56,796 nucleotides of DNA, from positions 64,001-120,796 of IMG/VR virus record IMGVR_UViG_3300042261_000652. One strand, given 5' to 3'. A model generated the notes under the pieces. The model did not search any database, was not told the origin of the DNA, and saw only the letters and a program-made list of their open reading frames with translations. This document shows, piece after piece, positions 54,385 through 56,796 of this stretch. The position numbers and the translations under genes are program-made. Source of the DNA: a virus. Position 1 is the stretch's first letter. Each line of letters starts with the position of its first letter.

Positions 54385-55983
54385 ATGCCTAAGTATTCAA
54401 AGTCAAAGGACATTTTTACACAGCGACGAGACTCTAGCAATAGAGGATTCGAGGAATGGCCTATTATAGTACAGCCGAATAGCGTGTTGATCACGGATTG
54501 TGCAAATAATTTGCAAATGGTCGATACAAAATCGCTGATGCAATATGAAATACCTAAAACCGCTTCTATGGCGCTTACGTCGGTGTCATCGTCATTTGCC
54601 ACGGTGGCGGCATATGCCCAGAGTGTTTCAGAAACCGCTTCCTATGCAAATCGAGCATCTAGTGCGTCATATGCCGATTATGCGAACAATGTTCCAGTTA
54701 CAGCGTCTTATGCGAATCATTCCTTGAGTTCCTCTTATGTTTTATCGGCATCTTATGCGGGAAATGTCCCCGTAACTGCTTCTTATGCAAATAGAGCATT
54801 GAGCGCATCTTATGCAAATAATGTTCCCGAAACTGCATCTTATTCGACTCGAACATTGAGTTCATCTTACGCCTTTTCCGCATCTTATGCAAGCAATGTT
54901 CCAGTTACAGCGTCTTATGCGAATAGGGCGTTAAGTTCATCCTATGCTAGTAATGTTCCTGAAACTGCTTCTTATGCAAATAGAGCATTGAGCGCATCTT
55001 ATGCAAATAATGTTCCCGAAACTGCATCTTACGCTACCATAGCACTGAGTTCATCTTACACACAAACCGCATCGTATGTAAGCGGTATCTCGGAAACATC
55101 TTCGTACGCAATTCAAGCGTTAAGCGCATCGTATGTAAGCGGCGTCTCAGAAACATCTTCATATGCAATTCGGGCATTGACTGCTTCCTATGCAAGCAAT
55201 GCGTCGGAAACGGCGTCTTATGCAAATCAGGCAACTTTGGCAGAAACGGCAAGCTATGAATATTTTAACGGCAATAGGTCAATTAAAAGATCGGGATATA
55301 GCGGATTAAATGTGGGAGGAATGAATGTAGCTACATTTTTAAATAATTTCTTCTTTCCTTTTATTTCTGCAACCATCGCTGTTTCTCCGAGCGGAACCTC
55401 TTATTATCAACAGGGAACCAATCCGAATTTTACTGTTACGGCTACGATTACCGCAAACGACGAGACGATTTTTGGAAGTGGAAGTATGAAAAAGGATGGT
55501 TCGGCATGGAATTCTGCTTCCGTACCGCCACTTTCCTTCGCATTTACCGATGCAAATATCACATCTAATCATTCGTATTATGCAACCGTTTCAGTAGATA
55601 ATAATGGGAGTCCCACGACCATTACTAGCAATACAAGCAACGTTTCGTTTATTTATCCATATTTGTGGGGAACGAGTTCTGTAGCAGGTTTGTCTGGAGC
55701 AAGTTTGTGGTCGACGATGAGCAGACAAGTGGTAACGAGTGGAAATAAAACGGTTAATTTTGTCGGAAGTGTAGTATTTATGTACTTTGCGTATCCCGCA
55801 ACATATCCTGCATTGACTTCTATTCTTGATCCAAATGGATTCGAAGTTATTGGAAATTACGAATACACTTCCAGCGTTTCGGTTACAAGTGTTGGATTAT
55901 ATAGCGATTGGACAACTAATTATAGAGTGTATAGAACAAGAATCGTATCCGATCCAAATGGAAATTATCAATTCAAACAATAA
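54385..55983 (+). CDS. Tail-fibre/whisker-like protein with ~10 tandem 19-aa (57-bp) 'NVPETASYANRALSASYA' repeats
   Basis: Repeats span roughly 54670-55260; Ser/Ala/Tyr periodicity. Confidence 0.6.
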   Translation: MPKYSKSKDIFTQRRDSSNRGFEEWPIIVQPNSVLITDCANNLQMVDTKSLMQYEIPKTASMALTSVSSSFATVAAYAQSVSETASYANRASSASYADYANNVPVTASYANHSLSSSYVLSASYAGNVPVTASYANRALSASYANNVPETASYSTRTLSSSYAFSASYASNVPVTASYANRALSSSYASNVPETASYANRALSASYANNVPETASYATIALSSSYTQTASYVSGISETSSYAIQALSASYVSGVSETSSYAIRALTASYASNASETASYANQATLAETASYEYFNGNRSIKRSGYSGLNVGGMNVATFLNNFFFPFISATIAVSPSGTSYYQQGTNPNFTVTATITANDETIFGSGSMKKDGSAWNSASVPPLSFAFTDANITSNHSYYATVSVDNNGSPTTITSNTSNVSFIYPYLWGTSSVAGLSGASLWSTMSRQVVTSGNKTVNFVGSVVFMYFAYPATYPALTSILDPNGFEVIGNYEYTSSVSVTSVGLYSDWTTNYRVYRTRIVSDPNGNYQFKQ

Positions 55984-56039
55984 TGTGAGAATACCAAATC
56001 AGATTGTAGAAGAATGTATAGAAAGGATGAGTTAATCCG

Positions 56040-56796
56040 ATGGCAATTAATGTAGATAGTGGATTTAAGGTGACTTCAGCAGGTCCATCCGATGTAAAAT
56101 CGGTATGGGCATCTACTGCTAGTTTATATTCGACTCCTGCCTCACCATCGGGATATATTTCGGCTTCTTGGAGATATGTCGGAATGACTGTATTTTGTCA
56201 AGATGTGGGAAGCCAATATCAACTCCTCGGCGGAACTGATGACAGTAATTGGATTAGAATTACAAGTGGAAGTCAATACATTTCGGCTTCATTCGCAGTT
56301 AATTTGCCAACGACTGCATCGTGGGCATCGTATGCAACTTCTGCATCATTTGCAACAAGTGCATCTCTTGCGACCCTTGCAACATCTGCGGCTTCTGCAT
56401 CATTCGCAACAAGCGCATCATTTGCGACCCTTGCAACTTCTGCGGCTTCTGCATCATATGCGGCAAGTGCATCTCTTGCAACTTCTGCGACTTCTGCGAC
56501 TTCTGCATCATATGCGACAAGTGCATCTCTTGCAGCCCTCGCAACTTCTGCGACTTCTGCATCATTTGCAACAAGTGCATCTCTTGCAGCCCTCGCAACT
56601 TCTGCGACTTCTGCATCATATGCGACTTCTGCATCATTTGCAACAAGTGCATCTCTTGCAGCCCTCGCAACTTCTGCGACTTCTGCATCATATGCGACAA
56701 GTGCATCTCTTGCAGCCCTCGCAACTTCTGCGACTTCTGCATCATTTGCAACAAGTGCATCTCTTGCAGCCCTCGCAACTTCTGCGACTTCTGCAT
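56040..56796 (+). CDS. Tail-fibre-like protein, 3'-truncated by the window edge, with 18-aa 'TSASYATSASLAALATSA' repeats
   Basis: ATG at 56040. The + frame is open to the window end and encodes Ser/Ala/Thr repeats consistent with the upstream fibre gene. The track's minus-strand ORF 56299-56796 is the low-complexity antisense of the same repeat. Confidence 0.55.
   Translation, partial: MAINVDSGFKVTSAGPSDVKSVWASTASLYSTPASPSGYISASWRYVGMTVFCQDVGSQYQLLGGTDDSNWIRITSGSQYISASFAVNLPTTASWASYATSASFATSASLATLATSAASASFATSASFATLATSAASASYAASASLATSATSATSASYATSASLAALATSATSASFATSASLAALATSATSASYATSASFATSASLAALATSATSASYATSASLAALATSATSASFATSASLAALATSATSA
56334..56796 (+). repeat. 54-bp tandem repeat array (8 or more units, continuing past the window end) inside the fibre gene
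   Basis: Unit gcgacttctgcatcatatgcgacaagtgcatctcttgcagccctcgcaacttct with variants; one unit carries an 18-bp internal duplication. Confidence 0.8.

Follow-up and report, generated by a model that had tools for sequence, protein, structure and literature searches.

The DNA examined here, 56,796 nucleotides (nt) of IMG/VR virus record IMGVR_UViG_3300042261_000652 (positions 64,001 to 120,796) and hereafter called the window, is the structural region of an uncultured, distant T4-like myovirus and encodes a terminase, portal, prohead protease, major capsid protein (MCP), gp13-like adaptor, gp14-like and gp15-like proteins. Two open reading frames (ORFs), here fibre 1 and fibre 2, follow the gp15-like gene, and a 1235-amino-acid (aa) protein is specified by the minus strand. 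Motifs of the form [AST]-S-[YFW]-A are confined to these three ORFs, and a motif count over the window found no further ORF of at least 100 aa with two or more of them; their concentration is therefore far beyond chance. The three genes had been taken for a fibre family in an earlier reading made from the sequence alone, and the shared motif style, an Ala at every third residue, and interchangeable adaptors and tips bear this out. We consider it probable that they encode three paralogous modular virion fibre proteins, each with an adaptor, a shaft and a distal domain, in which shaft length evolves by in-frame change in the number of units. Feature coordinates are collected in Table 1, where P and L numbers refer to the related proteins and to the loci or contigs compared; L020 is a syntenic contig of 59 kb. 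Tandem repeats were called with TRF, structures were modelled with AlphaFold2 (AF2), fold searches were made with Foldseek (PDB and BFVD), and Pfam matches were accepted at E ≤0.01.

Table 1. Features of the three fibre genes and the adjoining gp15-like gene (positions in the window)
Feature	Position	Strand	Remarks
Third family member, 1235-aa fibre protein	37029..40736	-	8 strict motifs, near both termini
C-proximal S-x-S-[YWF]-A region, aa 930-1130	37347..37949	-	weakly similar to the L020 fibres L_854 and L_363
Central domain, aa 399-766	38439..39542	-	like annotated tail-fibre proteins
N-proximal Ser/Ala shaft, aa 60-200	40137..40559	-	Ala period 3.0
N-terminal adaptor, type B	40602..40736	-	M.F.SRDLTNQYISLSYQDVVQRY; common to other fibre proteins
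gp15-like neck/tail-completion gene	53066..54382	+	Pfam PF16724 (T4-gp15_tss), E 1.4e-5; directly upstream of fibre 1
Fibre 1 gene	54385..55983	+	532-aa ORF; 100% match to P0001 across 488 aa
Fibre 1 N-terminal adaptor, type A	54385..54519	+	KDIFxQRR..FEE.P..V.PNSV, ~45 aa; found on relatives' fibres
Fibre 1 shaft array	54637..55248	+	aa 85-288; 22-23 [AS]SY[AVST] motifs in modules of 9, 10 and 6 aa
Fibre 1 C-terminal domain	55264..55980	+	~239 aa; linker and two predicted Ig/FN3-like beta-sandwiches
Fibre 2 gene, 5' part	56040..56796	+	252 codons; ORF runs off the window; full-length orthologue P0121 (1347 aa, L020)
Fibre 2 N-terminal domain	56040..56309	+	~90 aa; 57% identity to the L007 orthologue, 69% to P0121
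Spurious ORF	56299..56796	-	165 aa; opened by the stop-free repeat, while the plus frame is that which runs on out of the conserved N-terminal domain
Fibre 2 hexapeptide array	56310..56796	+	S-[YFLS]-A-[TA]-[SL]-A, 27 hexads; 54-bp units and one 72-bp unit
Exactly periodic distal block	56490..56796	+	period 180 bp = 54+54+72

Fibre 1 begins at 54385 and not, as called by the Joint Genome Institute (JGI), at an internal Met (54517) which shortens the protein to 488 aa instead of 532, because conservation in P0002 and P0003 extends over its first 35 aa. The roughly ten 19-aa units attributed to this gene by the sequence-only reading are indeed found at aa 85-288, each composed of ASYANRALS and ASYANNVPET; the motif spacing alternates between 9 and 10 aa, and three additional modules of 6 aa are present. 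At the DNA level the array is far from uniform. TRF reports periods of 57, 132 and 189 bp with matches of just 72–78%, the mean nucleotide identity between modules is 0.70–0.72, codon differences between pairs of 9-aa modules are synonymous in 124 cases and non-synonymous in 98, and 12 different codon strings encode the ASYA core. The sole exception to this divergence is an exact 69-bp duplicate (54774–54842 = 54963–55031). Approximately 70% nucleotide identity coupled with many synonymous differences shows that the modules are old and have been retained by selection at the protein level.

The C-terminal domain of fibre 1 is shared by about 60 metagenome proteins, in which its length is constant (236–248 aa). 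AF2 models aa 330–532 as two beta-sandwiches, with a predicted local distance difference test score (pLDDT) mostly above 90 (block means 82–98). Foldseek related this tip to crAss-like and gut-myovirus "tail fiber" and "baseplate wedge" proteins in BFVD (E 1e-11 to 1e-8), where the "Tail fiber protein" annotations are themselves predictions, and to generic Ig/FN3 folds only in PDB. The domain is probably the receptor-binding tip which contacts the host surface. Cultured phages gave no match to the region at the nucleotide level, and tblastn with fibre 1 was likewise negative.

Fibre 2 runs to the end of the window, which is very probably the end of the contig, since 120,796 less 64,000 gives the window's length and the longest contig with P0001 measures 120,796 bp. 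By tblastn its N-terminal domain is also 57% identical to the orthologues in L017 and L018, and a full HMMER scan with it gave 50 matches and recovered the orthologues, including P0121 and through it L020; an index search of the protein database with the same domain found nothing. The protein is missing from that word-indexed database because the JGI gene call is on the wrong strand: on L016, an independent 4.3-kb contig from the same phage, the minus strand was called over the repeat (3840–4313, -). The domain, with the core SWRY.GM...YQL.GG..W, is repeated 3–8 times internally in the metagenome proteins P0133–P0138, P0148 and P0151, and is therefore a small autonomous domain and more than an N-terminal adaptor.

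From aa 91 onwards fibre 2 keeps a strict hexad register over 27 consecutive hexads, that is, nine 18-aa units, and the 72-bp unit bears an 18-bp internal duplication; the eight or more 18-aa units with an intra-unit duplication of 18 bp described from the sequence alone are thus present, the phrase "8 or more" being a lower bound set by the assembler. TRF finds 54-bp units with 85% matches at 56333–56644 and 96% at 56621–56796. The proximal hexads are all distinct in DNA, and the distal ones are identical 4–6 times over. It is only for this distal part of fibre 2 that near-perfect repeats speak for recent expansion, as had been proposed; fibre 1, at about 70% nucleotide identity, is old, and the near-perfection at the window end is partly due to an assembly loop.

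The last 127 bp (56670–56796) are an exact copy of 56490–56616 at a shift of 180 bp. Outside the array L016 shows one mismatch to the window contig in approximately 4.26 kb; its final 126 bp are likewise a copy, with a shift of 72, and the two contigs differ solely in unit order at their ends. Both copied lengths fit the largest k common in SPAdes, and such terminal duplications are the signature of a de Bruijn assembly loop at k=127, which leaves the copy number unsettled. One might go further and assume that the amplification was made by the assembler, the real gene having diverged proximal units only, and it is true that the contig stops at the duplicated block. We find this improbable, since a k=127 loop can arise only where some 307 bp or more are truly periodic, as the contig shows; two independent assemblies agree over the first ~660 bp of the gene, 7 units included; and the L006/L007 lineage also ends in a near-perfect array, of a different 72-bp unit (TASWAETASWANTASYLPVDTYDI, units 90–96% identical). 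The periodic block itself is real, as no such loop forms unless each of its 127-mers is covered by reads.

Every contig that bears the fibre 2 gene (the window contig, L016, L006/L017, L007 and L018) ends inside it. The amplified unit differs among the orthologues, being 72 bp in L007 and a degenerate 186 bp in L018, and none is amplified in L020, whose full-length orthologue could be assembled because its repeats are degenerate. The amplification of different units across lineages offers the best indication here of an ongoing turnover. The far side of the window's own array was sought by exact-pattern scans for the 54-bp unit in the viral_contigs and metagenome_contigs collections, with 0 matches, and the 3' part of the gene with the C-terminal half of P0121, which yielded distant matches only.

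A more dynamic explanation is that of a contingency locus, in which near-perfect arrays change their unit number often within a population and give mixed fibre lengths or an on/off switch, by which the phage would be adapted in advance to variants of the host surface. It draws on the exact periodicity of the distal fibre 2 block, on the two assemblies of the same phage which are nearly identical outside the array and differ in unit order inside it, on the fibre 2-bearing contigs from at least four independent assemblies which all stop within the gene, and on copy-number mixtures observed experimentally in a tail-fibre gene (PMC6365445). We nevertheless hold it to be unlikely. The repeat periods in the window's fibre genes and their relatives (18, 36, 54, 57, 72, 132, 186, 189 and 216 bp) are all multiples of 3, so that gain or loss of units alters the length of the protein and never switches the gene off by frameshift; the phase variation put forward in the sequence-only reading is therefore rejected, and is the wrong term. 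Different graph loops at k=127 account for the difference between the ends of the window contig and L016, and it should not be read as polymorphism. The fibre 1 array is the same across assemblies, and the full-length orthologue P0121 has degenerate repeats only. A phase-variable or hypervariable locus is thus unsupported.

The third protein, of 1235 aa, was likewise said to show the motif style at both termini, and its strict motifs do lie in Ser/Ala-rich stretches there; TRF found no DNA tandem repeat in its gene. Its adaptor B also begins P0006, P0007, P0019, P0021 and P0025, all of which carry the fibre 1 C-terminal domain, as well as proteins at L001 12382, L002 13535 and L012 3783. In tblastn searches the central domain is similar (E 6e-35 to 3e-19) to proteins of huge uncultured phages, a Caudoviricetes "tail fiber protein" and a Rhodobacteraceae phage structural protein. 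Against PDB sequences the 1235-aa protein matched nothing, even at E 1–10, and the same was true of fibre 1 and of a TASYA-rich shaft. A baseplate module was sought with Pfam among ten minus-strand genes near this gene, and no matches resulted.

Comparison with the relatives shows how these parts are combined. The fibre 1-type C-terminal domain is found behind at least three adaptors (A, B and C), and adaptor A is joined to quite different tips in L002, L003, L004, L011 and L015. Fibres with adaptor A lie directly 3' of the gp15-like gene in L002, L004, L011, L015 and L020; in L003 the adaptor is inside the ORF called there. In the relatives compared the repeats are always positioned between adaptor and tip. 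This arrangement of adaptor, repeat shaft and distal domain, with exchange of modules, is the standard modular fibre design. Other proteins with the shaft motif end in Peptidase_S74 or Phage_tail_C and match "long tail fiber distal subunit" PHROGs; one of them, P0110, combines a TASYA-type shaft with Peptidase_S74, although tblastn with P0110 matched via the S74 domain only, its repeats being masked. An alpha-amylase match which arose when fibres 1 and 2 were searched against Pfam, PHROGs and NCBIfam was judged spurious.

Among the approximately 57 proteins compared that have the fibre 1 C-terminal domain the part upstream of it ranges from 62 to 485 aa and contains 0–23 motifs, the window protein having the most. 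Even where both adaptor A and the C-terminal domain are shared the counts are 23, 7, 3, 1 and 2, seven being that of the fibre 1 orthologue in L020. The repeat number is consequently not invariant among relatives, in agreement with the variability suggested by the sequence-only reading, and module number is evolutionarily labile, differing widely between relatives.

A feature not remarked upon in the sequence-only reading is that Ala recurs at every third residue in all three shafts. Fibre 2 has a period of exactly 3.0 (with a power of 66 times the variance); the period is 3.0 in aa 60–200 of the 1235-aa protein (34 times), and 3.15, that is 19/6, in fibre 1 (41 times). An index search for the family gave 244 matches; 170 family proteins were fetched, and 42/170 show this periodicity (120-aa window, power >15), the maximum for shuffled sequences being 6.8. 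Spurious Pfam matches to Plasmodium HRP, an (AHH)n protein, arise because of this period of 3. Such a period is incompatible with an alpha-helical coiled coil and equally with a plain beta-strand.

Because of their location one might suggest instead that these are fibritin-like neck whiskers, attached at the neck and not the baseplate, in which the repeats are alpha-helical coiled coils (18 residues per 5 turns in one case, 19 per 5 in the other). In T4 wac adjoins gene 13. The genes here lie directly 3' of gp13/14/15-like neck genes, the sequences are Ala-rich, and 18 residues do correspond to five helical turns, on which L8, L11, A15 and A18 would line up as a straight stripe. AF2, which usually finds coiled coils readily, gives no helix of four or more residues in either array; the dominant period is 3.0–3.15 and not 3.5–3.6; and the units regularly hold Pro or Gly (NVPET here, NGGG and LPVD in relatives) amid 40–50% Ser/Thr. 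The coiled coil is rejected on periodicity and on the AF2 result, and we regard the whisker explanation as having a small chance of being correct. Only its coiled-coil part is disfavoured, a neck location being compatible with a beta shaft. With regard to the choice between beta-helix and coiled coil which the sequence-only reading wished to see settled by structure prediction, the models thus speak against helix and, for fibre 2, give an all-beta structure of low confidence.

An exact period of three, which fibre 2 shares with the N-proximal shaft of the 1235-aa protein, also calls to mind a collagen-like or polyproline-II triple helix with Ala replacing Gly at each third residue, and the relative P0018 possesses a true collagen segment (PF01391) at the same position. 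Collagen packing needs Gly at the axis. The window shafts have no Gly-X-Y and almost no Pro, Pfam gives no PF01391 match, and AF2 yields extended beta-strands; collagen is rejected for want of a Gly repeat, and we give this structure hardly any credence.

The absence of predicted helix, the period of about 3, the Foldseek neighbours of the fibre 2 model, which are mostly beta-solenoids, and the S74 chaperone of P0110 lead us to favour, tentatively, a trimeric shaft in the form of a hexapeptide-based triple beta-helix or beta-solenoid. By eye, two of every three fibre 2 hexads agree with the left-handed beta-helix pattern [LIV]-[GAED]-x-x-[STAV]-x, an aromatic residue replacing the expected aliphatic one. 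The Peptidase_S74 intramolecular chaperone (ICA) folds an upstream triple beta-helix, and the related MyRF's beta-helical stalk has been drawn as stacked hexapeptide repeats (PMC8326128). The shaft repeat type is without a described family in Pfam or NCBIfam or a structure in PDB, and literature searches with the motif strings returned unrelated words only, those on repeat number in tail fibres nothing relevant. A bolder proposal, that the Ala-x-x shaft of S-[Y/W/F]-A modules is an undescribed trimeric fold (perhaps a narrow hexapeptide triple beta-helix whose core is aromatic/alanine), widespread in Bacteroidota phages, a ruler rapidly tuned in length by in-frame gain and loss of units so that the tip reaches receptors through capsules differing in thickness, and hypervariable within populations in arrays like that of fibre 2, strikes us as unlikely.

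Taken as three modular fibres, the proteins might function as follows. The short N-terminal adaptor would dock the fibre on the virion. The shaft, made of [AS]-S-[Y/W/F]-A modules of 6, 9 or 10 residues with Ala at every third position, is putatively a homotrimeric beta-structure, and the distal beta-sandwich pair of fibre 1 most likely binds the host surface. Unit number would shift by in-frame slippage or unequal recombination, the fibre being lengthened or shortened, and the repeats may double as homologous joints for the exchange of adaptors and tips. The outcome would be an evolutionary tuning of fibre reach and host range, with no on/off switch.

Several results weigh against the modular-fibre interpretation or some part of it. 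Fibre 1 matched nothing in Pfam, NCBIfam, PHROGs or PDB sequences. Fibre 2 had no usable match in Pfam, NCBIfam or PDB sequences, and its one PHROG match is weak (5.4e-6) and to a family of unknown function. For the repeats the AF2 models are of low confidence, with a pLDDT below 50 for fibre 1 and of 50–60 for fibre 2 in a single-sequence, all-beta model, and none of the Foldseek neighbours of the latter is significant (best E 0.02). The fibre 1 array is identical between two independent assemblies, and a third agrees up to 54716, where it ends, no length variation within the population being seen; this third assembly (L021), 100% identical, stops within the array where about 30 nt are repeated. 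An assembler loop makes up part of the identical units with which the window closes. Lastly, the assignment of the host, discussed below, draws on nothing closer than distant similarity.

Comparison with known systems places the window fibres among modular adhesins without equating them with any one. In the case of the T4 long and short tail fibres (gp34–gp37 and gp12), both belong to a T4-like virion module, with an adaptor, a repetitive shaft and a distal adhesin, and in both repeats act, or here would act, as joints for tip swapping while in-frame duplications alter the fibre. Host range is reportedly widened by tandem duplication of a small segment of gp37, and conserved motifs are said to serve as recombination joints. 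Unlike the T4 proteins, the window fibres have no detectable sequence homology to gp34–37 or gp12, their genes follow a gp15-like gene and are not part of a gp34–38 cluster, and both their repeat motif and the three-residue Ala period are foreign to T4 fibres.

Enterococcus phage EfV12-phi1 acquired in-frame tandem duplications in its tail fibre, read by the authors as a response to host resistance (PMC6365445). The likeness lies in a myovirus tail-fibre gene with in-frame tandem duplications 5' of the binding domain and variable copy number; its unit, however, is 1.8 kb, arose in an experiment and was measured by long reads (PMC6365445). The window units are 18–72 bp (with higher-order periods of 180–216 bp), belong to an old family-wide motif and are known from assemblies alone.

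Stalks composed of a triple beta-helix with an ICA domain (endosialidase endoNF, the T5 L-shaped tail fibre, the GA-1 neck appendage and MyRF; PMC8326128) offer hexapeptide-type strands stacked into a triangular trimeric prism, and P0110 pairs the TASYA-type shaft with Peptidase_S74. Pfam finds no S74 in fibre 1 or the 1235-aa protein, however, the C-terminus of fibre 2 lies beyond the contig, and the residues predicted to point inward here are aromatic ones and Ala, not Val, Leu or His.

The left-handed beta-helix (Hexapep, PF00132; LpxA, GlmU) resembles fibre 2 in that the 18-residue unit equals three hexapeptides, of which Y-A-T-S-A-S and L-A-A-L-A-T match the pattern given above, and the weak Foldseek neighbours of the fibre 2 model include GlmU, LpxA and gamma-carbonic anhydrases. 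On the other hand there is no Pfam Hexapep match at the cut-off, one third of the fibre 2 hexads have Ser at the core position, the 9/10/6 spacing of fibre 1 is incompatible, and the fold matches all have E ≥0.02.

The triple beta-spiral shafts of adenovirus and reovirus are built of pseudo-repeats of 15–20 residues, whose number varies by type and sets the fibre length. The 19-aa unit of fibre 1, with its one Pro, falls within that size range, but the sequences are unrelated, the beta-spiral's hydrophobic pattern was not found here, and these are viruses of eukaryotes. Flavobacterium phage vB_FspM_immuto (NC_055915), the closest cultured relative (57% identity in the MCP and 35% in the gp15-like protein), also has fibrous "virion structural" and "tail fiber-like" genes after its gp15-like gene; they differ in having 0–1 S-[YFW]-A motifs and no comparable repeats.

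After immuto the closest cultured relatives by MCP are Microcystis phage Mel-JY01 and Rhodothermus phage RM378, and the host is probably a Bacteroidota bacterium. The gp15-like gene has counterparts at 15 related viral loci, in most of which fibre genes are directly downstream. In L020 the order is NUDIX hydrolase, gp13 (83% aa identity), gp14 (72%), gp15 (69%), fibre 1 (364 aa) and fibre 2, followed by seven ORFs, of which 4/7 are fibre-like, and then the tail sheath; the cluster lies there between the neck and sheath genes, as the window's fibres lie directly downstream of theirs. The four further fibre-like genes make it almost certain that the fibre family continues past the window end. 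These extra genes (L020 14108–21362) include a paralogue in which adaptor C is joined to the fibre 1 C-terminal domain, a 244-aa paralogue of the fibre 2 N-terminal domain, and proteins of 943 and 854 aa with runs of ATQSLF-type hexapeptides. At L001 18511–19193 an 18-bp unit (TQSLFA) is present in approximately 38 copies.

Other features of the window may be mentioned. A perfect 17-bp direct repeat (ATATGATGATATTCAAT, 3.1 copies, 52523–52574) is located between ORF 52029–52442 (-; no family match) and the run of gp14-like, gp15-like and fibre genes starting at 52595. Possibly it serves as an operator or promoter; the gap which holds it has no counterpart in the syntenic L020, and a promoter/terminator scan of 52000–56796 gave nothing informative. 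A NUDIX hydrolase fused to a cell-wall hydrolase/lysozyme-like domain (49583–50863, -) lies next to the neck genes and is kept in L020 (4505–5839), where a CCA-adding/PolyA_pol enzyme and a 2'-5' RNA ligase are encoded upstream.

Three essential structural proteins are oversized: the large terminase (3244–6258, +, 1004 aa; LAGLIDADG_3 and Intein_splicing), the T4-like portal (6322–9501, +, 1059 aa; Intein_splicing and HNH_3) and the prohead protease (13016–14749, +, 577 aa; LAGLIDADG_3 and Intein_splicing). Only in the portal is the intein match above Pfam's own cut-off. Free-standing homing-endonuclease genes are found at 14803–16491 and 29713–31548. A 24-bp tandem repeat (26544–26652, 4.5 copies, 97%) encodes GAVPPAMP within ORF 26247–27758 (503 aa, no family match), just 5' of the major capsid gene.

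The biology that emerges is conventional, a further case of modular tail fibres that evolve in length, with no new mechanism. Arrays of this kind terminate short-read contigs and mislead gene callers, as the wrong strand in fibre 2 and the late start in fibre 1 illustrate, and databases therefore systematically lack the fibre genes of this group or have them in truncated form; exact terminal duplications at contig ends are useful to flag tandem arrays. If the modular-fibre interpretation is correct, fibres of uncultured phages have in common, in large number, a shaft repeat which is absent from Pfam, NCBIfam and PDB, and a solved shaft fold would improve the annotation of fibres in metagenomes of Bacteroidota phages.

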